From Dehalococcoidia bacterium (GTDB lineage Bacteria > Chloroflexota > Dehalococcoidia > Bin125), in contig CBDESM010000002.1 of the NCBI GenBank assembly GCA_965242485.1, positions 25,266 to 89,265 of the forward strand: 64,000 nucleotides of DNA, read 5' to 3'. Below are positions 5,472 through 62,775 of this stretch, one piece after another; the stretch's first letter is position 1; every line of letters starts with the position of its first letter. Under the pieces are notes generated by a model that ran no database searches, had not been told where the DNA came from, and saw only the letters and a list, made by a program, of their open reading frames with translations. A program made the position numbers and the translations under genes.

Positions 5472-6326
5472 ATGGCCATCTCGGGACCCGACCGCGCCGC
5501 CATCCGCCAGCACTTCGCGGCGCTCAACGCGCCGATCAAACTCGACTACTTCCATCAGTCGCCCAAGCGGGTCGTCGTGCCCGGCCGGGTCGAACGGCCC
5601 TCCTGCGCCTTCGCGCTCGAGGTCTACGAGGAAATCGCCGAACTCTCCGATCAGGTCGCGCTCAACGTCTACGAGCATGAGGACGAGCCCGAGATCGCGG
5701 CCAAGCGCGGCGCGGGCGACGTGCCCTGCGTGGTCGTGCGGGGCGAGCTCAACCGCCCGCTGCGGCTCTACGGGCCGCCCAACGGGCATCTGCTGGTCGC
5801 GCTGGTGCGGGCGATCGTGCTGGCCTCGGCGCGGCCCCGGGCGCTGGGCGCGATCACCCGCGCACTCAAGCGGCTGCGCGCGCCGCTGGCGATCCGCGTC
5901 TTCGCCTCGCCGCTGCAGCAGGAATCGGGCGAGGCCGCGCTGGCCGCTTGGGCCACCGCCCTGCTCAGCCCCAAGCTCTCCACCGACGTCTACGTCGTCG
6001 AGGAGTTCGCCGACGAGGCCCGCCGCGCTTCGGTGCAGGCGATCCCGTCCACGATCTTCGGCGAGATGCCGCCGGCGCCCGGCGTGATCGACGGGCAGGC
6101 GCTGGCCGAGTACGCCGGCCTCGCGCAGGCAAGGCCCGAGCGGGCGAGGCTCAACCCGCCGCAGTATCGCCCCAGCAGCGCCGTCGCCTGGCGCCCCCCG
6201 CCCAGCCAAGCGCAGCAGCAGCGCAGCCCCGATCCCACAGCCCTCGCCGCCGGCGCAGCCGCCACGACCGAGACGCCCGCCGGCATGCACCGCACCGCCG
6301 GCGGACTGATCGTCCCCGACCGCTGA
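5472..6326 (+). CDS. Thioredoxin/glutaredoxin-like two-domain protein (hypothetical)
   Basis: Two glutaredoxin-like repeats (..VYEHEDEPEIAAKRGAGDVPCVVV.. and ..IRVFASP...VYVVEEF..AIPSTIF) without a canonical CxxC. Pro/Ala-rich C-terminal tail. Confidence 0.4.
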   Translation: MAISGPDRAAIRQHFAALNAPIKLDYFHQSPKRVVVPGRVERPSCAFALEVYEEIAELSDQVALNVYEHEDEPEIAAKRGAGDVPCVVVRGELNRPLRLYGPPNGHLLVALVRAIVLASARPRALGAITRALKRLRAPLAIRVFASPLQQESGEAALAAWATALLSPKLSTDVYVVEEFADEARRASVQAIPSTIFGEMPPAPGVIDGQALAEYAGLAQARPERARLNPPQYRPSSAVAWRPPPSQAQQQRSPDPTALAAGAAATTETPAGMHRTAGGLIVPDR

Positions 6327-6374
6327 CCCGCGCCTGATTCAACGCAAAGCGACGGAGTGTACGAGATGCCACGC

Positions 6375-6444
6375 AAGTCAAGTCAAGTCAAGTCAAGTCA
6401 AGTCAAGTCAAGTCAAGTCAAGTCAAGTCAAGTCAAGTCAAGTC
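6375..6444 (+). repeat. Pentanucleotide microsatellite (AAGTC)14, perfect, 70 nt
   Basis: Read directly: aagtc x14 from 6375 to 6444, immediately upstream of the MTase-HNH ORF. All three frames through it are open (KSSQV cyclic peptide). Confidence 0.95.
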
Positions 6445-6451
6445 GCCCTCA

Positions 6452-7858
6452 TTGGGCCCGGGCGATCCGAACGTTGAAAACCGCACCCTCTTCGAGCACG
6501 ACAACCTCCCCGTCATGCGCGGGATCAACTCCGAAACCATCGACCTGATCGCCACCGACCCGCCCTTCAACAAGGGCCGCGACTTCCACGCCACCCCCGA
6601 CTCGCTCGCAAAAGGCGCGAGCTTCCAAGACCGATGGCGCTGGGAGGAGGACGTGCAGGCTGAGTGGGTGGACGCGATCAAAGATTCGGAGCCCGGCGCA
6701 TGGGCCGTGATCGACTGGACACGGATGACCTACGGCGACGACATGGGGGCGTTCTTGTGCTTCGTCGGGGTGCGGCTATTGGAGATGCGGCGGGTGTTGA
6801 AGCCGACGGGGAGCATCTACCTCCACTGCGATGACACAGCGAGTGCATACCTGAAGACGCTGATGGACGCGATCTTCGGGCGGCAGAATTTCCGCAATGC
6901 GATCAAGTGGTGCTACACGGGACCAAGCGTAGCCAAGCGTTGGTTCCCTCGAAAGAGTGATTCGATCCTCTTCTATGCGAAGAGCGATGCGAGTACGTTC
7001 AATTCGCAACGGAAACCGCACAAGTCAGGTATCCACAATAACGGAACGGTCTTCGGAAAGATCGACGGTGATGCCGAGCAAATGCGGCAACGGGAAGTAG
7101 ATGGGAAGCTTGTCGAGGACTGGTGGGATGATTTTGGTGCCGGAGCACATATCGCTAAGGGCGAGCGCACTGGCTACCCGACACAGAAACCGCTCGCGCT
7201 TTATGATCGGATCATCCGGGCCTCGTCAAATGAGGGTGATTGGGTGCTGGATCCGTTCGCGGGGTGCGCGACTACGCCATTGGCGGCGGAGATGGCGGGG
7301 CGGCGCTGGATCGGGATCGACCTTTGGGACGGGGCGATGCAGACCACGATTGAACGTTTCCAGAAGACGGTGAAGCTGGCGGCTGCGGATACTGCGGTCA
7401 ATACGATGGCGATCATCGGCCAGCTGCACCACCGTACTGATGTGCCAGAACGTACTGATGGCGGGGATGCGGCTGCGCCATATCTGGCGACGCCGACGAA
7501 GGGGATGCGGCGCAGGCCGTTGATGGGCGTGAGCGAGATGAAAGAGCTGCTGGTCGATAAATTTTGGTTCCATTGCTGGGGCTGTAATTTCGTCGCGCCC
7601 GACGCGCGCTATCTCGAACTCGACCACATCCGCCCGCGCAATTCCGGCGGCTCCGACGATATCGACAACCGCGCCCTGCTCTGCGGCCCCTGCAATAAGA
7701 TCAAGCGCGACCACGCGACGCTGGTCAGCCTCCGAAAGGCCAACGAGAAATCAGGCCACCTCAGCGGCACGCACCCGATCAACCTCAAAGAAGCCGGCCG
7801 CTGGACCCGCCAACAGTACGAAGCAGCCCTCGCCAAGCGCCTCGGCGCAGAAGCCTAG
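6452..7858 (+). CDS. Beta-class N6A/N4C DNA methyltransferase fused to a C-terminal HNH endonuclease domain
   Basis: Motif IV DPPF (IATDPPFNKG) precedes motif I (LDPFAGCATT), i.e. beta class, PF01555-like. The C-terminus HCWGCNF...LELDHIRPRNSGGSDDIDNRALLCGPCNKIK is a clear HNH motif. GC (~52-60%) is lower than the neighbours. The annotated start is a TTG with no SD directly after the repeat, so the true start and frame linkage depend on repeat number. Confidence 0.8.
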   Translation: MGPGDPNVENRTLFEHDNLPVMRGINSETIDLIATDPPFNKGRDFHATPDSLAKGASFQDRWRWEEDVQAEWVDAIKDSEPGAWAVIDWTRMTYGDDMGAFLCFVGVRLLEMRRVLKPTGSIYLHCDDTASAYLKTLMDAIFGRQNFRNAIKWCYTGPSVAKRWFPRKSDSILFYAKSDASTFNSQRKPHKSGIHNNGTVFGKIDGDAEQMRQREVDGKLVEDWWDDFGAGAHIAKGERTGYPTQKPLALYDRIIRASSNEGDWVLDPFAGCATTPLAAEMAGRRWIGIDLWDGAMQTTIERFQKTVKLAAADTAVNTMAIIGQLHHRTDVPERTDGGDAAAPYLATPTKGMRRRPLMGVSEMKELLVDKFWFHCWGCNFVAPDARYLELDHIRPRNSGGSDDIDNRALLCGPCNKIKRDHATLVSLRKANEKSGHLSGTHPINLKEAGRWTRQQYEAALAKRLGAEA

Positions 7859-7874
7859 CGGCGAGCCGATCGGA

Positions 7875-7902
7875 ACAGCCGACGCCGCAGGGCGTCGGCT
7901 GT
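7875..7902 (+). terminator. GC-rich hairpin (12-bp perfect stem, GCAG loop), putative terminator after the MTase-HNH gene
   Basis: acagccgacgcc-gcag-ggcgtcggctgt, followed by a moderately T-containing stretch and then an AAGGAG RBS for the next gene. Confidence 0.5.
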
Positions 7903-7930
7903 TCGCTATCATCAGATCAAGGAGCAGCCA

Positions 7931-8560
7931 ATGGTCAGCGCGCCAGCCATCGAGACCATCGAGGATGCGGCCGAGGCCGCCCGCGAGGGCCCGCCCGTCT
8001 GCTTCCACCCGAACGCGCCCGTCTCCGACGAGCAGCTCACGCAATGGGCCGGCCAGTTCGAGCTCTGGTTCGAGGACGGCGAAGAAGGAGAGATCATCAT
8101 CACTGGAGGAGCAGGCGGCGACTCGCCGAACATCACCTTGGAAGCGTCGGGGCAAGCCGCAAACTGGTCAGTGAACCTCCTCATCGGCATGTGCCGCGAC
8201 GCGCAGGGCGGCTACCACCCGCCGCTCGGACGCCGCTGGATCCCCGACCTCAGCTGGCTCAGCGACGAGACCCTGGCCAAACTCACGGAATCGCAGCGGC
8301 GCGGCGTCTGCTGGCCTGTCGCGCCGGATTTCGTGCTCGAAGTCGTCTCGCCCAGCCAACAACTCTCCAAGCAGCAGGAAAAGATGCGCGGCTGGATCGC
8401 CGCCGAAGTCCGGCTCGGGATGCTGATCTCCCCAGATGACGAACTGGTCGAGCTCTACCGCGCCGACGGCTCCGTCGAAACCTTCCACCGCCCCGACGCC
8501 GTCTCCTGCGACCCCGTCATGCCCGGCTTCACCATGACTTTCGAGCGCATCTGGCGCTGA
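7931..8560 (+). CDS. Uma2 family endonuclease, tandem copy 1
   Basis: 209 aa; PDFVLEVVSPS, GMLISPDDELVELYR, PGFTMTFERIWR. RBS AAGGAG upstream. Confidence 0.8.
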   Translation: MVSAPAIETIEDAAEAAREGPPVCFHPNAPVSDEQLTQWAGQFELWFEDGEEGEIIITGGAGGDSPNITLEASGQAANWSVNLLIGMCRDAQGGYHPPLGRRWIPDLSWLSDETLAKLTESQRRGVCWPVAPDFVLEVVSPSQQLSKQQEKMRGWIAAEVRLGMLISPDDELVELYRADGSVETFHRPDAVSCDPVMPGFTMTFERIWR

Positions 8561-14280: not shown

Positions 14281-14885
14281 CGGTCGAATAAAGCCCAGAT
14301 TCGCTTGAAGTCGACGACGAAACCGGGCATCTCGGGGCCGACTTCCAGCGTCAGCGGGCTCACGTGCACTTCCGGTTCGCCATCGTCGCAGAAGACGTAG
14401 ACCGTCTTGGACAAAGGGTCGATCATCCAGACGACTTTCGCGCCGTCGCGCATCCACTCGCGCGCGCTCTCCAGCTGCGAGGCGACCGACTGGCCGATGC
14501 GTCGAATCTCGACCACGACAGACGGGATTATGCGCGGATAGCCGGGTTCGCCGGCTTGGCGCAGCACCTTTTCGCCCTGCTCGGCGGTGAACCAGCACGC
14601 ATTGGGAGCACGCGTCCGCAGATCATGCGGCCGGCGAACCCCGGCGCCGGCGCCACTGACCAAGCCGCCGGCCTCGTCCGCCCAATTCATGAACTGCTGG
14701 ATCAGCATCACCCCGATGTACGGCGCGAAGCCGGGGCTGCTTCCAGAGAGGATGAGTTCCCCTCGCGCCCCGCGCTCGATGTCCAAGTGCGGGTTCAGCT
14801 CGGCGCAGCGCTCGAGCAGATCATCCGTCAGCGGCGTTTCGGCCGGCAGCTCGACGACGTAGACCGCGTCCTCGGCCGCATCCAC
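14277..14885 (-). CDS. Uma2 family endonuclease
   Basis: PSVVVEIRRIGQS, VVWMIDP, GPEMPGFVVDFKRIW. Confidence 0.75.
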   Translation of the reverse strand: MDAAEDAVYVVELPAETPLTDDLLERCAELNPHLDIERGARGELILSGSSPGFAPYIGVMLIQQFMNWADEAGGLVSGAGAGVRRPHDLRTRAPNACWFTAEQGEKVLRQAGEPGYPRIIPSVVVEIRRIGQSVASQLESAREWMRDGAKVVWMIDPLSKTVYVFCDDGEPEVHVSPLTLEVGPEMPGFVVDFKRIWALFDR

Positions 14886-14898
14886 GAGAGCGGCCGGG

Positions 14899-15519
14899 CT
14901 AGCAGCCGGACTTGACGAGGTCGACGATCTCGCGGACGGTTTCGTCGCGCCAGCTGGCCCACTCGTCGCCGCGCTGGAGGTCCTGGTAGCCCTGCCGGAT
15001 GCGGGCGCGGTGGTCGTCTTCGTTCTCGTCCTCGCCGCGCTTGAACAGCCGCTGCATGTCGGCCATGTACTCGTTGGCCTTGGCCGGGCGCTCGATCCAA
15101 TGCCCGATGTACTCGTGCTCCGGCGTGTAGAGCACGGCCGTCGGGATGCTCTGGTGCTCGCCGTCCTTGAGGAATTCGCGCATGATGTCGAGGTGCTCGT
15201 CGCGCGGGAAGATGCGCAGCTCCCAGCCGGCGTTGGCGGCGACTTCGGCCAGCACGGGCAGGCCGCGGTAGACGTCGGGGCACCAGTCCTCGCCGAGCAC
15301 GAGCATCTTCAGGCGCGGCAGCTGCTGCAGCTCGGCCCGGTGCTCGTCGGAGAGCTGCCAGGAGCCCATGTTGCGGACGAAGCGCTCGACGTTGGAGCCG
15401 CGCGGGTTGCCGCTGGGCGAGGGGCGCTGCTGGTTCTCCTCGGAGGCGATGTAGGCCAGGTACTGGTTCCAGGTCATGCCGGAGGCGAAGCGTTCCTCGG
15501 TGACTGCGGAGTCGGTCAT
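14899..15519 (-). CDS. Thioredoxin-family protein
   Basis: Start taken at Met 15519 (MTDSAVTEE) with an AAAGGA RBS. WCPDV segment with a thioredoxin-like length and fold pattern. The upstream Arg/Pro-rich extension is rejected. Confidence 0.55.
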   Translation of the reverse strand: MTDSAVTEERFASGMTWNQYLAYIASEENQQRPSPSGNPRGSNVERFVRNMGSWQLSDEHRAELQQLPRLKMLVLGEDWCPDVYRGLPVLAEVAANAGWELRIFPRDEHLDIMREFLKDGEHQSIPTAVLYTPEHEYIGHWIERPAKANEYMADMQRLFKRGEDENEDDHRARIRQGYQDLQRGDEWASWRDETVREIVDLVKSGC

Positions 15520-15559
15520 GTCGCGTTCCTTTCCGGGCGGCGCGGGCTCGCGGCCGCCG

Positions 15560-15814
15560 TTATGCGTGATCCTGATGGCAGGGGCATGAGCACTCGTCGA
15601 GCGAGTAGCGCATGACGTCGATATAGGTGGATTCGGCCAGCCGCTCGGCCAGGTCCGCGGAAAGGCCGGTGCCGCCGGGACCGCGCGCCTCGCGGACCTT
15701 CTCGTAGGCATAGGCGGCCATGGCCGAAGCGCGGTTGATGACGTCGGCCAAGTCGGAGCGGACGACGCCTTCCTCGCCCGCTGCCCTGTCCAGATCGGCG
15801 CCTTGATCGCTCAC
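15560..15814 (-). CDS. Small hypothetical protein (~84 aa) with C-terminal CSCPCH motif
   Basis: GGAGGTGG RBS then GTG. Normal-composition ORF ending ...YSLDECSCPCHQDHA*. No known domain. Confidence 0.3.
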   Translation of the reverse strand: MSDQGADLDRAAGEEGVVRSDLADVINRASAMAAYAYEKVREARGPGGTGLSADLAERLAESTYIDVMRYSLDECSCPCHQDHA

Positions 15815-51943: not shown

Positions 51944-52983
51944 TGCTCAAATACGCCGCTTTCCCCGCCCTCGTCCTGGCTCTCGCGCTCGCCGCGGCCG
52001 CATGCAGCGGACCGCCCGAACGCCGCGACATCCTCGCCAACCTCGCCGACTTCGTCTTCCTCCCGGTCTTCGAGGAGGCCGCCGACAGCGCCGCCGAACT
52101 CGCACGGGCGGTCGAGACCTACGCCGCTGATCCGACGCCGGGCCGGCTCGACAACGCCCGCGGACGCTACGCCGTCGCGCGCAGCGGCTGGGCCGCCACC
52201 GCCGCCTTCCGCTTCGGCCCGGCCATGGACCGCCGCTCCGAATCGCAGATCGATTGGTGGCCGATCGACCCCGCCGCCATCGCCGCAGCAGCCGCGGCCG
52301 GCGCGGGCGTCGAAGACATCCGCGAACGCCAGTCAGCCGCCACCCGCGGCTTCCATGCCCTCGAATCTCTGCTCTGGAACGACGATCTCGGCGACGACCG
52401 CGCTGCCCGGACCTACGCGGCCCACCTCGCCCGCATCATTGCCGACGAAACTGCCGCCATCCGCGACGAATGGACCGGGGCCGGCCGCGACTTCGCTTAC
52501 GCCGATGCCCTCGCCGGACGCGGCGGCACCGCCATCTCTGCCGCCCTCGCGCTCGCCGACGTCGTCCGCACCAGCATCTTCCTCACCGAAACCGTCGGCG
52601 ACATGCAGCTCGGCAAGGCGCTCGGCATCACTGGCGACCGCGACCCGGAGGCGATCCCCGGCCTCGGCCCCTCCAGCGGCGACGACCTCCGCCAGATCGT
52701 GCGCGGCATCCGCGCCTCCTTCCTCGGCGTCGGCGACCATCTCGCCGTCGGCACCCTCGTCAACGATCTGGACGACGATGCCTACGACCGCATGCAGGCC
52801 GCGCTCGACGCCGCCGTGGCCGCGGTGGACGCCCTGCCCGCCGACATCAAGGCCGATGCGGACGAACGCGCCCTCGCCGCCGCCCGCGACGCGATCAAGC
52901 AGGTCCAGATTCTCTACGCCACCGAGGTCGTCTCCCTGCTCGGCATCTCCGTCGGCTTCTCCGACAACGACGGAGATTCCTGA
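51944..52983 (+). CDS. Imelysin-like lipoprotein, second copy
   Basis: ATG overlaps the previous stop (TGATG). Lipobox (AAAACSG). The imelysin-type HALESLLWNDD block is present. Confidence 0.7.
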
Positions 52984-56463: not shown

Positions 56464-56790
56464 GGCGGACGGAATGGCGATTTCCGATCATCAACGCGCC
56501 GACCTCTAGGTGCGGGCGTGCTGATAAAACCCCTGCCTCGCCGCCGAATCAGCCAAGGACCTTCCGTTCAAGCAGATTTTAGGTCTTGGACGACGATGCG
56601 GAAGACTAGACGAACGCATCAACGATCATGTACGCGATCTGCGAGATCGTGAGCGCTGCAAGCCACCAGATCCGCCAATCCGTCCACCAACTCGTGCTTG
56701 AGACCATGTAAGACGAGGCATCCACCTCCACATCGCGCCGCCGAATGCGGATTCGCCAGCCCGACTCCGTCTCTCGTCGCCAGCCCGCCA

Positions 56791-57042
56791 TCAGACCCAC
56801 AACACTTCTACGTTGTGGCCCGTGCCGTCCTCGTACTCGATCTGCGCGAACCCGGTCTTGTCGACTCGGATCACGTGCGCCGGCACCTCAACCCCGTCCT
56901 CGCCCAGCATTCGCCGACCCTGATCTGAAGGAACCCGGTATGTCAGCCGGAACGCCTTGCCGCGCTTTTCCTTCGCCACCTCGATCTCGGTGATGTGCTT
57001 GATGCACCGGCTCGGCCGGGCATCCGTCTCTGCAAGTGCCAT
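56791..57042 (-). CDS. Small hypothetical protein (83 aa)
   Basis: Clean non-biased ORF (MALAETDARPSRCIKHITEIEVAKEKRGKAF...) in a locally lower-GC stretch. No domain recognised. Confidence 0.3.
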   Translation of the reverse strand: MALAETDARPSRCIKHITEIEVAKEKRGKAFRLTYRVPSDQGRRMLGEDGVEVPAHVIRVDKTGFAQIEYEDGTGHNVEVLWV

Positions 57043-57140: not shown

Positions 57141-58235
57141 ATGCGCGCCGCCGTTCTCGATGCTCCGAACACGCCAATGACGATCCGCGAGCTGGTGCAG
57201 GATGAGCCGGGCTTCGGCGAAGTCCGCGTGCGGATGGGGGCCGCGGGCATCTGCGCCTCCGACCATCACGTGATCCAGGGCACCGCGCCGTTCCCGCTGC
57301 CTTCCGTGCTCGGGCACGAGGGGGCCGGCACGATCGAAGCGGTCGGCGAGGGGGTCACCAACGTCGAACCCGGCGACCGCTGCATCCTTTCCTTCGTCAC
57401 GCCGTGCGGGCAGTGCGCGACCTGCCGGCGCGGCACGCCACAGCTGTGCGACGCGCACCAAGCGACCGGCTCGCGGCTGCTCGACGGATCGGTCAAGCTG
57501 CACGACGAGAACGGGGCCGAGGTGTTCCAAATGGGCAAGCTCGGAGTCTTCGGCGAGTACGTCGTCACGGACCAGCGCGCCTGCCATCCGATTCCCGACG
57601 ATGTTCCCATCGAGGTCGCGGGCCTGATCGGCTGCTCCGTCACCACCGGCGTCGGCGCGGTGATCAATCAGCCGACCGCCCGCGCCGGCATGACCGTCGC
57701 CGTGATCGGCTGCGGCGGGGTCGGTCTCAACGCGATCCAAGGGGCGGCGCTGCTAAACGCCTCCAAGATCATCGCGGTCGACGTCCACGATCACAAGCTC
57801 GATTTCGCGACCAAGTTCGGCGCGACCGATACCGTCAACGCACGCAACATCGACCCCATCGCCGCAGTCCGCGAGCTGACCGGAGGCGGTGCCGACTTCA
57901 CCTTCGATACCTTCGGCTCCGCCGAAACCAGCAGCCAGGCCATCGAAGCCGCCGGCAAGGGCGGCACCGCCGTCATCGTCGGCCTCGCCCCCGTCGAAGC
58001 CCGCGGCCACATCGACCTCGTCGACATGGTCCGCAAGCAGAAAACCGTCACCGGCAGCTACTACGGCAGCGCCAGCCCCCACCAAACTTTCAACACCCTG
58101 GTCGACATGTACCGCAACGGCCGCATCGAAGTCGACAGCATCATCCAGCGCCGCTACGCCCTCAACCAGATCAACGAGGCCTTCCGAGACCTAGAAGCCG
58201 GCAAGGACGGCCGCGGCGTCATCGTCTATGACTGA
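57141..58235 (+). CDS. Zn-dependent alcohol dehydrogenase (MDR family, class III-like)
   Basis: GHEGAG, Cys cluster CGQCATCRRG for structural Zn, and Rossmann VIGCGGVGL. GGAG RBS then Met 57141. Confidence 0.85.
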   Translation: MRAAVLDAPNTPMTIRELVQDEPGFGEVRVRMGAAGICASDHHVIQGTAPFPLPSVLGHEGAGTIEAVGEGVTNVEPGDRCILSFVTPCGQCATCRRGTPQLCDAHQATGSRLLDGSVKLHDENGAEVFQMGKLGVFGEYVVTDQRACHPIPDDVPIEVAGLIGCSVTTGVGAVINQPTARAGMTVAVIGCGGVGLNAIQGAALLNASKIIAVDVHDHKLDFATKFGATDTVNARNIDPIAAVRELTGGGADFTFDTFGSAETSSQAIEAAGKGGTAVIVGLAPVEARGHIDLVDMVRKQKTVTGSYYGSASPHQTFNTLVDMYRNGRIEVDSIIQRRYALNQINEAFRDLEAGKDGRGVIVYD

Positions 58236-58795
58236 GCGCCGAAGATTTCGGCCATCACTGCTTCGGCCTGCACCACATCGCCGCCCCAACGCGCCATCCA
58301 TTGCGGTGAATCGCCCACGCGCACATCGAGCCACAGGGGCTCTACCGCTCCCGCGCCGCCATGTTGGCCGGATACGCCATCAGGTCTCGCCATTAGAATT
58401 TGCTTCGGGATGATCCAGATCGCCACGTCCTCAAGGCGAGGAGCGAGTCCGATGCAGATCATGATCTCGTAGTTTTGATCACGAATTTGTTGGAACTTGA
58501 ATCGGCCATTCGCCCATAGGGTCGAGAGTTTGATTTCGACTCGACGGCCCTCAATCAGCCGGTCAGCTTCACTGTCACCGGCAGGCTCGACTGTGTACCC
58601 GAGCGCTTCGCACCAGTCCGCGATGAGATTTTCGCCAGTCGCACCTCTTGCCCGTGACGGCAATTGTCTGAGCCATCCAAACGGACTCTGATCCCATTCG
58701 CGATCTTCCTGGGAACGCGAGGCCTCAAGATTGGACGAAATCTCAGCGAGCAGATTGAGCAATTCGTCGCGCCGTTGATCTGAGTCCGGCATCAT
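58226..58795 (-). CDS. Putative Type II restriction endonuclease (PD-(D/E)XK-like), partner of the adjacent MTase
   Basis: 189 aa. Start overlaps the MTase stop by 4 nt. Candidate catalytic motif D-x13-E-x-K (AGDSEADRLIEGRRVEIK). GC ~57%, well below the genome background. Confidence 0.55.
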   Translation of the reverse strand: MMPDSDQRRDELLNLLAEISSNLEASRSQEDREWDQSPFGWLRQLPSRARGATGENLIADWCEALGYTVEPAGDSEADRLIEGRRVEIKLSTLWANGRFKFQQIRDQNYEIMICIGLAPRLEDVAIWIIPKQILMARPDGVSGQHGGAGAVEPLWLDVRVGDSPQWMARWGGDVVQAEAVMAEIFGAQS

Positions 58796-59673
58796 GCCTC
58801 CAATACGAGTTGTCGGGTGCTCTCTGTGAGGTTATCAGGCGCGAAGCCTTGAAATGTTGGATTAGCGAACGCCAGTCGTGTCGCCATCGTGCATGCTGCG
58901 TCGGGGTTCACGTCGATCATCGTGAAGCAGCGCCGGAGTCGTGCCGCTGCTTCTCCAGTCGTGCCAGAACCAGCGAAGAAGTCAAGGATGTGATCGCCGG
59001 GATCGGAATGTACGGCGATCAGTCGCTTGAGAATCGACAGAGGCTTCTGCGTCGGATATCCAGTTCGCTCCTTTCCGTTCGTCGGCACGATCGTGTTCCA
59101 CCAGACGTCAATGGGCGGACGGGCGGACTCGGCTGCGTCGCCCGGCATCGGGTAGTCCGACGAGTTGGCGACATCGGCATTGAAGACGTATTGATTTGGA
59201 TCTCTTGCATACCAAAAGATCGAATCGTGCTTCGCAGCCCATTTCCGCTTCGAACGGCCGCCGAAGTCGTATGCCCAGATGATCTCATTCATGAACGATT
59301 CGATTCCGAAGATCGAGTCCAACAACAGTCGGCAATAGTGAGATTCCCGCTGATCGATGTGGAAGAAGAGGGAGCCATCAGCTGTCAGTATCCGGCGAGC
59401 TTCGGCTAGCAACGGTGCTAGAAATTCGATGTATCCATCAAACGAATCGTCATATCCCTTTGAATCGATGGGGATTGAACGATAGGCGCGCCCGCCGAAG
59501 CCGACTCTGTCCCCGTTCACCGCATCGGCCACGACTTTGATGCGGTTCAGCGTCTGGGTCTTGCCGGTGTTGAACGGCGGATCGATGTAGATCAGGCGGG
59601 CGGATTCATCGGGGAGCAACGGCAAGACGCTCGCAGAGTCGCCGCAGATGATCGAGTTGCCCGTTGGCTGCAC
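58792..59673 (-). CDS. Beta-class N6A/N4C DNA methyltransferase (Type II)
   Basis: DPPF (LIYIDPPFNTG) precedes FAGSGTT; PF01555-like. GGAG-N8-GTG start at 59673. The upstream 730 codons of the track ORF are an Arg-rich shadow and are rejected. Confidence 0.85.
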   Translation of the reverse strand: MQPTGNSIICGDSASVLPLLPDESARLIYIDPPFNTGKTQTLNRIKVVADAVNGDRVGFGGRAYRSIPIDSKGYDDSFDGYIEFLAPLLAEARRILTADGSLFFHIDQRESHYCRLLLDSIFGIESFMNEIIWAYDFGGRSKRKWAAKHDSIFWYARDPNQYVFNADVANSSDYPMPGDAAESARPPIDVWWNTIVPTNGKERTGYPTQKPLSILKRLIAVHSDPGDHILDFFAGSGTTGEAAARLRRCFTMIDVNPDAACTMATRLAFANPTFQGFAPDNLTESTRQLVLEA

Positions 59674-59678
59674 GGCAT

Positions 59679-60767
59679 CTACTCCAGCGTTGCTTGGAGC
59701 TGGTTGTGGATCAGCGGCCAGTCGATTTCGTGGCCCAGGCCTGGTTTGGTGGGGGCGTGGACTGTGCCGTTGGTCATGTCGATCTCTTCGGCTAGGCCGT
59801 AGACGAGGCCGCCGGTGCTGGGGAAGTACTCGTAGAACTCGCTGTTGGGGGTGGCCATCATGACGTGGAGGTTGGCTACGTTGTTGAGGCTGTTGCCGCC
59901 GTGGTGGATCTCGCATTTCATTTGGAAGCCTTCGGCGAGGTGGCAGAGCTTGACGAGGGGGGTGATGCCGCCAGTGACGGCTACGTCGCCGCGGAGGATG
60001 TCGGTGGCGTATCTGGTGATCCACTGGGTCATGCCGTAGTAGCGGCCGGGGGCGTATTCGGTGGACATGATCGGGATGTCCATCTTGGCGCAGAGCTTGA
60101 CGTAGCTGTAGAGGTCTTCTTCGGCCAGCGGGTCTTCGTACCAGTAGTAGTCGAGCTCCTCGATGGCGCGGCCGACGCGGACGGCGTCCTCGTATTGGTA
60201 GGCCCACATCGAATCGAGCATCAGCTTCATCTCGGGGCCGACGGCTTCGCGCACGGCGCGGCAGATTTCGATGTCCTCCTTGGGGTCGGCGTGCGGGTGG
60301 ATCTTGTGCGCCGTCCAGCCTTCGGATTGGAATTTCAGTGCCTCTTCGGCGTATTCCTGCGGGGTGTCCCACCAGGCGGTGCTGGAGTAGACGGGCATCT
60401 CCTCGCGGACGGTGCCGAGCAGGCGGTGGATCGGCTGGTTGGCGATTTTGCCGTTGATGTCCCAGAGGCAGATGTCGATCGCGCCGATCACGTGGGTCGA
60501 GACGGCGCGGTTCTGCTTCCAGAGGTCCTTCCAGATCGCGCCGATGTCCTGCGGGTTCTTGCCCAGCACGCGCGGCTTGACCACGTCGATCAGCGACTGC
60601 GCGTGGTGTTCGGGCCGGCTCAGGAAGGCGTGGCCGGAGACGCCCTCGTCGGTTTCGACGGCGACGACGCCTAGTGAGCGCTTGCCGCCGAAGCGCATGT
60701 GGCTGCCGACCTTCCATTCGGGCGTCGGCCAGTCGAAGACGAGGACTTTGACGTTGGTGATCTGCAT
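59679..60767 (-). CDS. Enolase-superfamily enzyme (mandelate racemase / muconate lactonizing enzyme family)
   Basis: MR/MLE N- and C-domains, with metal ligands in the KxK...D...E...D pattern. GC ~60%. Confidence 0.75.
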   Translation of the reverse strand: MQITNVKVLVFDWPTPEWKVGSHMRFGGKRSLGVVAVETDEGVSGHAFLSRPEHHAQSLIDVVKPRVLGKNPQDIGAIWKDLWKQNRAVSTHVIGAIDICLWDINGKIANQPIHRLLGTVREEMPVYSSTAWWDTPQEYAEEALKFQSEGWTAHKIHPHADPKEDIEICRAVREAVGPEMKLMLDSMWAYQYEDAVRVGRAIEELDYYWYEDPLAEEDLYSYVKLCAKMDIPIMSTEYAPGRYYGMTQWITRYATDILRGDVAVTGGITPLVKLCHLAEGFQMKCEIHHGGNSLNNVANLHVMMATPNSEFYEYFPSTGGLVYGLAEEIDMTNGTVHAPTKPGLGHEIDWPLIHNQLQATLE

Positions 60768-60776
60768 CGCGCGCTC

Positions 60777-61943
60777 CTATGCCAGGTTGTTGACGTTGGT
60801 GACGAGGTTGTAGATGAACCAGCCGTCGTCGACGCCGAAGGTTTCGGGCTTGGCGCGGAGGTTGTCGCGCATGATGCCGAGGCCGTCGGTGTACGGCTCG
60901 AAGGAGACGATCTTGTCGTGGCGGACGCGGAAGCGCTCGCGTTCGCCGTGGAAGTAGAGGTGCTTGGTGGTGACGCCGAGCATGCCGGTGTCGGCGAGGA
61001 TCGTGACCTCGCGGGAGTGGCTGCGGCCGCGGAACTGGCTGGGGCGGAGGTAGACGCCGCTGGCGACGCGGACGCTGACGCCCATCGAGCTGCCGCGGAA
61101 CTCGCGCTCGGTCTTGGTTTTGTAGTACTTGGCGTCTTGGAAGACCCAGATCATGTCTTCCGATTTCATCAGGTTGAACGGCATCCGGCCGCCGAAATCC
61201 ATGCGGTCGGGCAGGTGGCCGTCCATGACGTCGCGCAGGACGCCGGCTTGGACGAGCTTGGTGAAGCGCCCGTTGCCGTCGAGCTGGGATTGGGAGAGAT
61301 CGAAGTGCTGCATGAAGCGGCCGAGCGAGGCTTCTTCGTCCTGCGAGAGGAGGCCGTCCTCCAGGGCTTCGTCGACGGCGCGGCCCCAAGCGACGGGGGA
61401 GAAGCGGCGGGCGGCGGACTGGGCGAAGCCGAGCTGGTCGAGTTCTTGGTCCATCTCGGGCAGGGAGATGTTGCCGTGCGCCGCGTCGACGATGATTCCC
61501 TCGGCTTGGCGGCGGATGCGTTCCGCCTCGCGCTGCTCGCGGACCGCGATCGCCTGCTCGAAGTCGCGCCAGGAGTTGCGGTGGTCGAGATCGGCCCGGC
61601 TCAGTTCGTAGTGCTCTTGGAAGCGGCGCAGCGCGGCTTCTTCTTCTTGGCTGAGCAGATCGTCGGACAGCGATTCGCGGAGCACGTCGCGCCAAGCTTC
61701 GGCTTGCGCGGAGCGGGCGCGTTCCGGTGCCATCTCCAGCGCTTCGAGCACTTCGTCGGCTTGGGAAGGGTCCATGTTGCCGCGGGCGGCGGGCTTGAGG
61801 ACGCGCAGCGCGGAGGCACGGACTTCGGCGATGCGCCGTTCTTCGGCCTGCTCGGCCGCCTTGCACGCGAGGTGCTTGGGCCCGAACGCCTTCAGCGTCT
61901 CGCGGAAGCCGACATCCTCGCCGCAGATCGAACAGGCGGGCAT
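60777..61943 (-). CDS. Hypothetical protein with N-terminal zinc-ribbon (CxxC...C) and uncharacterised C-terminal domain
   Basis: MPACSICGEDVGF...LACK N-terminus, central coiled-coil-like acidic region and a conserved-looking C-terminal ~150 aa. No family recognised. Confidence 0.45.
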   Translation of the reverse strand: MPACSICGEDVGFRETLKAFGPKHLACKAAEQAEERRIAEVRASALRVLKPAARGNMDPSQADEVLEALEMAPERARSAQAEAWRDVLRESLSDDLLSQEEEAALRRFQEHYELSRADLDHRNSWRDFEQAIAVREQREAERIRRQAEGIIVDAAHGNISLPEMDQELDQLGFAQSAARRFSPVAWGRAVDEALEDGLLSQDEEASLGRFMQHFDLSQSQLDGNGRFTKLVQAGVLRDVMDGHLPDRMDFGGRMPFNLMKSEDMIWVFQDAKYYKTKTEREFRGSSMGVSVRVASGVYLRPSQFRGRSHSREVTILADTGMLGVTTKHLYFHGERERFRVRHDKIVSFEPYTDGLGIMRDNLRAKPETFGVDDGWFIYNLVTNVNNLA

Positions 61944-61950
61944 CTGACGC

Positions 61951-62775
61951 CTAGCGGCCGGTGAAGCGGGCGGGGCGCTTTTCGAGGAAGCTGTTGATGC
62001 CCTCTTGGCGGTCCTCGCTTTGGCCGGAGATGCCGAGCGCCCAAGCTTCGCGTTCGAGCTGGCCGTCGAAGTCGGCGTTCGCGCCGTGCTGGACGAGGCG
62101 CTTGGTGAGTTCGATGGCCAGGCTGGGGCCGCGGGCGATGCGCTCGGCCAGGGCGAGCGATTCGGGCATCAGGCGCTCCGGGTCGACGACGCGGTTGACG
62201 ATGCCCCACTCGGAGGCTTGGGCGGCGTCGACGCTGTCGCCGGTGAACATCATCTCGAGCGCGCGCCCGGTGCCGATCAGGCGGGGCAGGTGGTAGGTGC
62301 TGCCGGTGTCGGGCGAGATGGCGCGGTGGACGAAGGCGGAGACGAAGCGGGCGTTGGTCGAGGCGATGCGGATGTCGCAGGCGAGGGCGAGCGACATGCC
62401 GGCGCCGGCGGCCGCGCCGTTGACGGCGGCGATGGTGGGCTTGGGGTAGGCCTTGAGGGTGCTGAAGAGCGAGCCCCAGTGGCCGATCGGGGCCTCGGCG
62501 TGGCGGCGGTATTCGCGCCCGGCCAGTTCGCGGCCGGCTTCGCGCGCTTCGGCGTCCTCGCCGACGTCGGCGCCGGCGCAGAAGCCGCGGCCCTCGCCGG
62601 TGATCACCAGCACCTTGACGGAGTCGTCGTGGCGGGTGCCTTCGAGCACGTCGAGCAGCTCATGGACGAGGCGCCCGCCGACGGCGTTCATTTTCTCGGG
62701 GCGCATCAGGGTGGCGACGGCGACGCCTTCGGATTCTCCGTCGAGGCGCTCGACGCTGACGTGCTGGTACTCCAT
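61951..62775 (-). CDS. Enoyl-CoA hydratase/isomerase family protein
   Basis: Crotonase fold (FCAGADV..., AAVNGAAAGAGMSLALACDIRIAS). Confidence 0.8.
   Translation of the reverse strand: MEYQHVSVERLDGESEGVAVATLMRPEKMNAVGGRLVHELLDVLEGTRHDDSVKVLVITGEGRGFCAGADVGEDAEAREAGRELAGREYRRHAEAPIGHWGSLFSTLKAYPKPTIAAVNGAAAGAGMSLALACDIRIASTNARFVSAFVHRAISPDTGSTYHLPRLIGTGRALEMMFTGDSVDAAQASEWGIVNRVVDPERLMPESLALAERIARGPSLAIELTKRLVQHGANADFDGQLEREAWALGISGQSEDRQEGINSFLEKRPARFTGR

Follow-up and report, generated by a model that had tools for sequence, protein, structure and literature searches.

Which part of a low-GC stretch in a high-GC bacterial genome is foreign DNA, and what does that part encode? The question arises in a 64-kb stretch of contig CBDESM010000002.1 of a Dehalococcoidia bacterium (this whole stretch is called the window below, and coordinates are window positions unless a scaffold is named). 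An earlier reading of the letters alone, here the sequence-only reading, had marked 58226-61943 as a low-GC island that holds a Type II restriction-modification (R-M) pair, an enolase-superfamily gene and a gene for a 388-amino-acid (aa) protein with a zinc ribbon. We find that the segment of foreign composition is the pair of methyltransferase (M) and nuclease (R) genes only, about 1.44 kb (58236-59678) and not 3.7 kb. In our judgement 58226-59673 is very probably a compact Type II (IIP-like) R-M module, foreign DNA lodged in the gap between the enolase-family gene and an alcohol dehydrogenase (ADH) gene, in which the R allele was later replaced. For comparison we used the metagenome scaffolds L003, L004, L006, L007, L008 and L009 of relatives; those with the same gene order were reached through homologs of the 388-aa protein.

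Foreign composition is confined to two genes

The lowest GC content of the 64 kb is found at 58.0-60.0 kb (0.586 vs 0.694 overall), and a scan of GC in the best frame (424 segments of 450 bp) likewise has its minimum for the window there, at 0.63 against a median of 0.87. Broken down by gene, GC at third codon positions (GC3) was 0.62 in R and 0.67 in M, as opposed to 0.85-0.93 in the neighbouring genes (n=8), which include those for the enolase-family protein (0.90), the 388-aa protein (0.89), ADH (0.88), an enoyl-CoA hydratase (ECH; 0.93), a short-chain dehydrogenase/reductase (SDR; 0.93), an aldo-keto reductase (0.86) and a luciferase-like monooxygenase (0.85). A sliding calculation of the kind that the sequence-only reading had asked for therefore revealed a composition that is not uniform, with the deviation confined to the M-R pair.

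As a result, the island proposed earlier keeps its R-M part as low-GC DNA and loses the enolase-family and 388-aa genes, both of which have the GC3 of their neighbours. The 388-aa gene had been placed in the range of 57-64% GC; its total GC is 0.668, above that range. The enolase-family gene does have a total GC of only 0.634, but the deficit sits in codon positions 1 and 2 and thus reflects amino-acid composition, not foreign codon usage. A foreign origin of this gene, considered for its lower total GC, was rejected on its GC3 together with its conserved synteny, described below.

The methyltransferase

M is predicted to be a beta-class N6/N4 amino-methyltransferase. Residues 26-259 match PF01555 (E 1e-41) and nearly the full length matches the PADLOC MTase_II model PDLC03300 (E 6e-111). 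Motif IV (IYIDPPFNTG) lies near residue 30 and motif I (DFFAGSGTTG) near residue 240, with the target recognition domain (TRD) between them, which is the beta-class order. The nearest solved relative is M.RsrI (E 1e-22), followed by CcrM and the Mod subunit of EcoP15I; enzymes that modify cytosine at N4 score much lower than these N6-adenine enzymes, and homologs of M are named adenine-specific by JGI. The target base is thus probably N6-adenine rather than N4-cytosine, the lead being given by a DPPF motif (not SPPY/F) and by the ranking of the solved relatives. We placed the start of M at an in-frame GTG (59673), in agreement with the gene calls of L003, L004 and L006; a 1024-aa open reading frame (ORF) listed mechanically for this region was rejected as an upstream extension in a high-GC frame.

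The nuclease

Searches with R found no match in Pfam or NCBIfam, and nothing significant in the PDB either with the single sequence or with a 37-sequence profile. Residues 21-180 do match the PADLOC REase_II model PDLC03515 (E 6e-43), alleles at 94%, 81% and 79% identity are present in databases, and 83 clusters of homologs of about 185 aa were recovered, none carrying a name. Aligning 37 sequences (33-78% identity) left 25 columns without variation, among them the block FQQxRDQxY and residues D78, E87 and K89, which form a putative catalytic motif D-x8-E-x-K on the predicted strands E79-81 and E84-92. An AlphaFold model computed from this alignment (mean confidence score, pLDDT, 90.2) has a restriction-endonuclease/PD-(D/E)XK fold, in which both the alpha-beta-beta-beta-alpha-beta core and the catalytic residues of that superfamily are present. 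By fold and catalytic residues R is a PD-(D/E)XK nuclease, presumably an active one. The earlier assignment of the 189-aa ORF to this superfamily is thus upheld by fold, invariant residues and PADLOC match, and no homologs came to light that are clearly not nucleases.

The closest solved folds are those of I-Ssp6803I, NhoI and Eco15I, at 9-19% identity to R. I-Ssp6803I is an intron homing enzyme, and the PDB entries of NhoI and Eco15I show binding to methylated targets; we take the latter two to belong to the BisI family, cutters of methylated DNA. Neither type is paired with a methyltransferase, whereas R is invariably paired with M, and R differs further from all three by an additional N-terminal helical arm of about 65 residues. 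The possibility that R is itself a methyl-dependent enzyme, raised by the BisI-like folds, was rejected in view of its obligate pairing with M.

Distant homologs of R occur in the T4-like cyanophages S-RIM14, S-SSM2, S-ShM2 and S-BM3 (31-36% identity, E 1e-15; PHROG 6927). The homolog of Synechococcus phage S-BM3 (L093 2588-2929) was found together with 12 other cyanophage records, and in the one S-BM3 region inspected no annotated methyltransferase stands beside it. It may be set alongside these phage homologs that the closest solved fold to R is that of a cyanobacterial homing endonuclease.

M and R travel together across phyla

The end of M overlaps the beginning of R by 4 nt (GCATGATG; ATGA/TGATG), with GGAGG just upstream, an arrangement that points to translational coupling of R to M. 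The two are separate, adjacent genes, as is characteristic of Type II systems, with no ATPase/helicase or specificity subunit, and their neighbours are the ADH and enolase-family genes. A pattern scan of GTDB species genomes detected a relative of R in 249 genomes from many phyla, and 80 of these loci were fetched. An M homolog (46-60% identity) lies directly upstream of R and on the same strand in 77 of the 80, that is, in all 77 that could be evaluated; in the remaining three R is at most 240 bp from a contig end, and the upstream side is not assessable. The same pairing is seen in L003, L004 and L006 and in L001, a scaffold of Ca. Poriferisodalis. Carriers of R are spread over more than 10 phyla, among them Actinomycetota, Chloroflexota, Planctomycetota, Gemmatimonadota, Verrucomicrobiota, Deinococcota (Meiothermus hypogaeus) and Proteobacteria (Tepidimonas). 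When the window was added to the fetched loci, the resulting 81 sorted into 62 groups, with no flanking protein in common between groups within about 4 kb.

M and R thus form a self-contained mobile two-gene module, and the locus, judged from its sequence, agrees with an orthodox Type II R-M system at every point of membership that can be tested. The Type II pair with its classic overlapping M-to-R arrangement, as first proposed, is borne out by the PADLOC models, by PF01555 and by the pairing in 77/77 loci. With the Type IIP pairs of the RsrI, PvuII and HinfI type the window shares two small genes, a PF01555 methyltransferase in the order motif IV - TRD - motif I, a small PD-(D/E)XK nuclease, an overlap of the M stop with the R start, and the absence of ATPase, helicase and specificity subunit. 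Unlike those examples, it has an R without detectable sequence similarity to solved or Pfam/NCBIfam-modelled restriction enzymes, no controller (C) protein and no space for a promoter of its own, being appended directly to a host operon.

In the Ca. Poriferisodalis scaffold the M and R homologs have GC3 values of 0.69-0.71, vs 0.80-0.85 in their neighbours. There (L001 5047-7997; Candidatus Poriferisodalis sp., sponge-associated Acidimicrobiia) M-R is followed by a gene for S-adenosylhomocysteine hydrolase, whose start is overlapped by the R stop by 4 nt. S-adenosylhomocysteine is the by-product of methyltransferases; the adjacency is perhaps coincidence.

Substitution of the cassette among close relatives

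In L003, L004 and L006 the gene order SDR-ECH-388aa-enolase-M-R-ADH is identical to that of the window. L007 and L008, whose backbone proteins are 83-95% identical, hold an unrelated cassette between the enolase-family and ADH genes; M and R occupy the slot at identical junctions in four of the six sequenced slot genomes (the window, L003, L004 and L006). The alternative cassette (L007 12369-13531; L008 2849-3100) lies on the opposite strand, has GC3 values of 0.64-0.70, and encodes an 83-aa ORF in both scaffolds and, in L007, a 304-aa ClpP/SDH-like serine protease (PF01972, E 2e-13); the L008 contig ends past the 83-aa ORF. Its proteins match no PADLOC model. One possible reading of these low-GC3 genes is a pair with a defence or addiction function that has not been described before. 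When the window is compared with L007/L008, homology breaks off, to the base, immediately past the stop codons of the enolase-family and ADH genes; the slot thus bounded measures 1,443 bp in the window as against 1,452 bp in L007.

Taken together, the deviating GC3, the substitution polymorphism and the patchy distribution across phyla in unrelated contexts support horizontal acquisition of the M-R pair, as the sequence-only reading had suggested for its R-M part. Substitution-type polymorphism of R-M loci with biased GC3 was the commonest class in the survey of Furuta, Abe and Kobayashi 2010 (PMC2853133). The window has in common with those substitution loci the conserved flanks that enclose R-M genes in part of the genomes and unrelated ones in the rest, the biased GC3 of the R-M genes, and the lack of a mobility gene or repeats. 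It departs from them in that its junctions are base-exact at two convergent stop codons and that, among carriers, the swap to a distant allele from within the family is limited to R and the tail of M.

Divergence of the nuclease allele

In comparison with L003, identity is 96-99.6% for the flanking proteins of the window and 91% for M, but falls to 73% for R; overall, R is 70-73% identical to its copies in genomes in which the flanking genes are 95-99% identical. Synonymous (dS) and nonsynonymous (dN) divergence was estimated by the Nei-Gojobori method between the window and L003, L004 and L006. In R, dS reached 1.55-1.63 with dN/dS 0.11-0.13; the corresponding values were 0.38-0.62 and 0.11-0.14 in M, and 0.05-0.29 and 0.04-0.26 in the flanking genes. 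Among L003, L004 and L006 themselves, R copies have a mutual dS of only 0.25-0.44. A 30-bp identity profile dropped to 46-86% across the hyper-divergent block, vs mostly 83-98% on either side. The part of M that falls in this block (its last 25-30 codons) is located beyond motif I and not in the TRD.

R is thus under purifying selection, with a coalescence far older than that of its surroundings, and the simplest reading of the pattern is that a distant allele of the same family was imported by homologous recombination.

Features of the window at and around the variable slot. Strand + or - as in the window.
Feature	Coordinates	Strand	Remarks
ADH (Zn-ADH)	57141-58235	+	Convergent to R; slot edge
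R, candidate PD-(D/E)XK restriction endonuclease, 189 aa	58226-58795	-	Start overlaps M stop; stop overlaps ADH stop by 10 nt
M, predicted beta-class N6/N4 DNA methyltransferase, 293 aa	58792-59673	-	GTG start at 59673
Variable cassette slot, 1,443 bp	58236-59678		ADH stop codon to enolase stop codon; GC 0.586
Hyper-divergent block	~58230-58880		All of R plus about the last 25-30 M codons; edges approximate to ~30 bp
Enolase-superfamily (MR/MLE) gene, 362 aa	59679-60767	-	Host backbone
388-aa protein gene	60777-61943	-	Host backbone; CxxC...HxxC ribbon, helical region, PH/GRAM-like domain
ECH	61951-62775	-	Flank beyond the 388-aa gene

The enolase-family and 388-aa genes

The R, M, enolase-family and 388-aa ORFs all lie on the minus strand, with gaps of 5-9 nt; the co-direction of the 388-aa gene with the R-M pair had thus been read correctly. 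The GTG start of M lies 5 nt past the enolase stop codon, which forms one edge of the slot. The enolase-family protein matches the C- and N-terminal domains of the MR_MLE family (PF13378, E 2e-53; PF02746, E 6e-12) and is acid-sugar dehydratase-like, below all NCBIfam cut-offs. It is 93-99% identical and in the same position in L003, L004, L006, L007 and L009. We regard it as a host metabolic gene on this evidence; its earlier inclusion in the island is contradicted by a native GC3 and by the ECH-388aa-enolase synteny found in all relatives, including two that lack the R-M pair (L007 and L008, at 83-99% identity).

The N-terminal cysteine ribbon described earlier in the 388-aa protein is real: at least 90% of 43 homologs retain C4, C7, H24 and C27. 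Next comes a helical region, in which the motif LSQ(E/D)EE...F...LS is repeated twice. The C-terminal domain had been called unassignable, which is accurate as to Pfam; its predicted structure is nevertheless a PH/GRAM-like fold, with no sign of a nuclease or recombinase fold. The protein matches no Pfam, NCBIfam or PHROG family, and a TerB match was seen in one homolog. More than 350 homologs were found, mostly of 285-480 aa, many on Mb-size chromosomes; in two other genomes, a small sample, the homolog stands among uvrB/ruvABC genes and among trehalose/Usp genes, respectively, with no R-M genes nearby. In this large family (the window protein and homologs P0084-P0203) the PH/GRAM-like domain is extremely conserved (PFNLMKSE...W...Y...R...G.S.G.S), with 56 columns invariant across 43 sequences of 38-93% identity; shorter forms of 285 aa are without the N-terminal part.

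Residues 28-121 show a weak, partial match to the PADLOC candidate PDC-S48 (E 3e-8, 91 of 411 model positions), which is also matched by 24 of the 43 homologs (best E 5e-9); the helical region is alike in both, and the zinc ribbon and the PH/GRAM-like domain lie outside the match. We found no mention of this untested candidate in the library of papers searched. The native GC3, the backbone synteny and the presence in genomes without R-M, together with the PH/GRAM-like fold, mean that the defence or mobility role once suggested for the 388-aa protein is not supported by its sequence and predicted structure.

Proposed model and competing explanations

We propose that a foreign module was inserted, in an ancestor of the lineage and probably by illegitimate recombination, where the convergent enolase-family and ADH genes meet with a gap of 0 bp. 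The slot is now polymorphic in the population, with the R-M pair in some genomes and the unrelated cassette in others, and both spread and allele exchange could proceed by homologous recombination in the conserved flanks. Either in the lineage of the window or in that of its relatives, R and the 3' tail of M would later have given way to an allele from within the family but of much older origin, probably through homologous recombination with M and ADH as flanks. M would methylate adenine at N6 in a short, probably palindromic target in host DNA, and R, presumably as a homodimer, would cleave the same target when it is unmethylated; M-first translational coupling may limit self-restriction. Since M begins 5 nt past the enolase stop and leaves no room for a promoter of the pair, M-R is probably transcribed by read-through from the host ECH-388aa-enolase operon, as its last part. 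A promoter and terminator scan of 57.9-62.9 kb returned no sigma-70-like promoter and one terminator-like site in the ECH gene, and is uninformative for a high-GC organism.

Several observations weigh against this model. The folds nearest to R (I-Ssp6803I, NhoI, Eco15I) mean that fold alone is no proof of classical restriction, no enzyme could be named within the R family, and the choice of N6-adenine over N4-cytosine for M draws solely on DPPF and on similarity to M.RsrI. Directly shown are the identities of the genes, the fold and catalytic residues, the strict pairing of M with R, the composition, the polymorphism of the slot, the divergence of the alleles and purifying selection, whereas enzymatic activity, methylated base, target sequence, co-transcription and recombination route are inferred. 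We compared observed with Markov-expected frequencies of all 4- and 6-mers and NNxNN patterns in the window, in 60 kb of close relatives and in 580 kb of the 80 homologous loci, and under-representation of palindromes singled out no site for M-R in any of the three; the signals were generic (CTAG, GGNCC, CCGG), and TCNGA, mildly low in all three sets (observed/expected 0.71-0.86), was not distinctive. Regarding mobility, the cassette had no match in a plasmid collection, no integrase, transposase or other mobility gene lies in or beside the slot, and the mechanism of entry was not seen. The search for flanking direct repeats or an att site that the sequence-only reading had recommended, extended to inverted repeats, brought up no more than short repeats attributable to chance, all of them away from the junctions. 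Finally, low GC3 in all carriers indicates that the acquisition was not recent in this genome.

Four other explanations were weighed against the model. That the whole of 58226-61943 is one acquired island, with the 388-aa protein as an accessory defence or mobility component, could appeal to four co-directional genes with 5-9 nt gaps, to the total GC of the enolase-family gene (0.634) and to the PDC-S48 match in the 388-aa helical region (E 3e-8; 24/43 homologs). It is nonetheless extremely unlikely, as the two additional genes have GC3 values like those of their neighbours, ECH-388aa-enolase is kept in L007 and L008 without R-M, and the PDC-S48 match covers only residues 28-121 of a protein that ends in a PH/GRAM-like domain and has homologs elsewhere with no R-M genes nearby. 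It is also very unlikely that R is some other PD-(D/E)XK nuclease (homing, repair or resolvase-like) and M a solitary or regulatory methyltransferase: R is co-oriented with and adjacent to the same methyltransferase family in 77/77 loci and across 62 contexts, the gene overlap is of the kind that couples translation, the REase_II match is near full length, and there is no intron, intein or tRNA context of the sort typical of homing enzymes.

Orphan M genes are a frequent end point of R-M decay, and an R that is 70-73% identical where its flanks are 95-99% identical might be an inactive, decaying gene with relaxed constraint, M alone being functional. We regard this as distinctly improbable, given that R has a dN/dS within the range of its housekeeping neighbours, that its excess divergence is synonymous (dS ~1.6), and that the ORF is intact and full length with 25/25 family-invariant residues, a count that holds for the window copy by construction. 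Improbable, too, is the view of the pair as an old vertical resident, with a low GC3 held by selection (for expression or target-site avoidance) and with the L007 cassette as the newcomer. The identical M+R junctions in four of the six slot genomes do imply that the pair predates their split, and the Ca. Poriferisodalis homologs are likewise below their neighbours in GC3; against this stand the occurrence of the family in more than 10 phyla and 62 contexts unrelated to one another, which requires transfer, the low GC3 of the L007 cassette as well, which implies foreign DNA in both states of the slot, and an R allele whose coalescence is far older than that of the flanks. Going beyond the proposed model, there is some chance, albeit a minor one, that the enolase/ADH gap is a miniature defence hotspot of this uncultured lineage of roughly 69% GC, with the L007-type cassette as a possible undescribed defence or toxin-antitoxin pair and the split of R, with M largely retained, possibly maintained by balancing selection (e.g. 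escape from phage anti-restriction) and not by neutral import.

Significance

The cassette is unremarkable, one more uncharacterised representative of a familiar type of system, and its practical value is modest. No concept is changed by it, low-GC, mobile, substitution-type R-M islets being textbook material. What it adds is a Type II R-M family, already among the PADLOC Type II models, whose nuclease lacks both a Pfam/NCBIfam model and a solved structure, and which is widespread in uncultured Actinomycetota, Chloroflexota, Planctomycetota, Gemmatimonadota and other phyla. Two carriers are in culture, Meiothermus hypogaeus DSM 23238 and Tepidimonas sp. HKU77, and the specificity could be determined there. 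In addition, the locus offers a tidy natural case of cassette substitution with base-exact stop-codon junctions and of allele exchange restricted to R. The boundaries of the island have been corrected, and the enolase-family and 388-aa genes are removed from the defence hypothesis.

Other variable and R-M-like loci

Further variable loci lie near the slot. L004 has an extra gene (14722-15768) for a 348-aa Mrr_cat/NA-iREase1 nuclease just after the aldo-keto reductase stop, at the position equivalent to 56466-56557 of the window; it matches the PADLOC candidate PDC-S02 (E 2e-101) and is absent from the window, L003 and L006. With this insertion the region has a second variable slot for defence genes, some 1.7 kb away from that of M and R. 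In L004 (20306-20555) and L006 (20012-20563) an imelysin gene is accompanied by a gene for a restriction endonuclease of the BsuBI/PstI family (PF06616/PF17728); homology of both scaffolds to the window stops at this endonuclease gene, at 51966, where the window instead carries other ORFs, none with a Pfam match. An ORF of 83 aa on the minus strand (56791-57042), located between the aldo-keto reductase and ADH genes of the window, is 88-98% identical in L003, L004 and L006 but only 40% identical in L007. Neither Pfam nor PADLOC has a match for this ORF, and the surrounding intergenic DNA has a GC of about 0.61.

At the other end of the window, a second stretch of low GC3 (6151-7800, GC 0.618) coincides with a gene on the plus strand (6452-7858) for a 468-aa fusion of an N6_N4 DNA methyltransferase (PF01555, E 4e-40) and a C-terminal HNH nuclease domain (PF01844, E 2e-9). 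Next on the same strand comes a Uma2-family 'putative restriction endonuclease' gene (7931-8560; PF05685, E 7e-21), and the genes at 6452-8560 may represent a second R-M-like element of the window.

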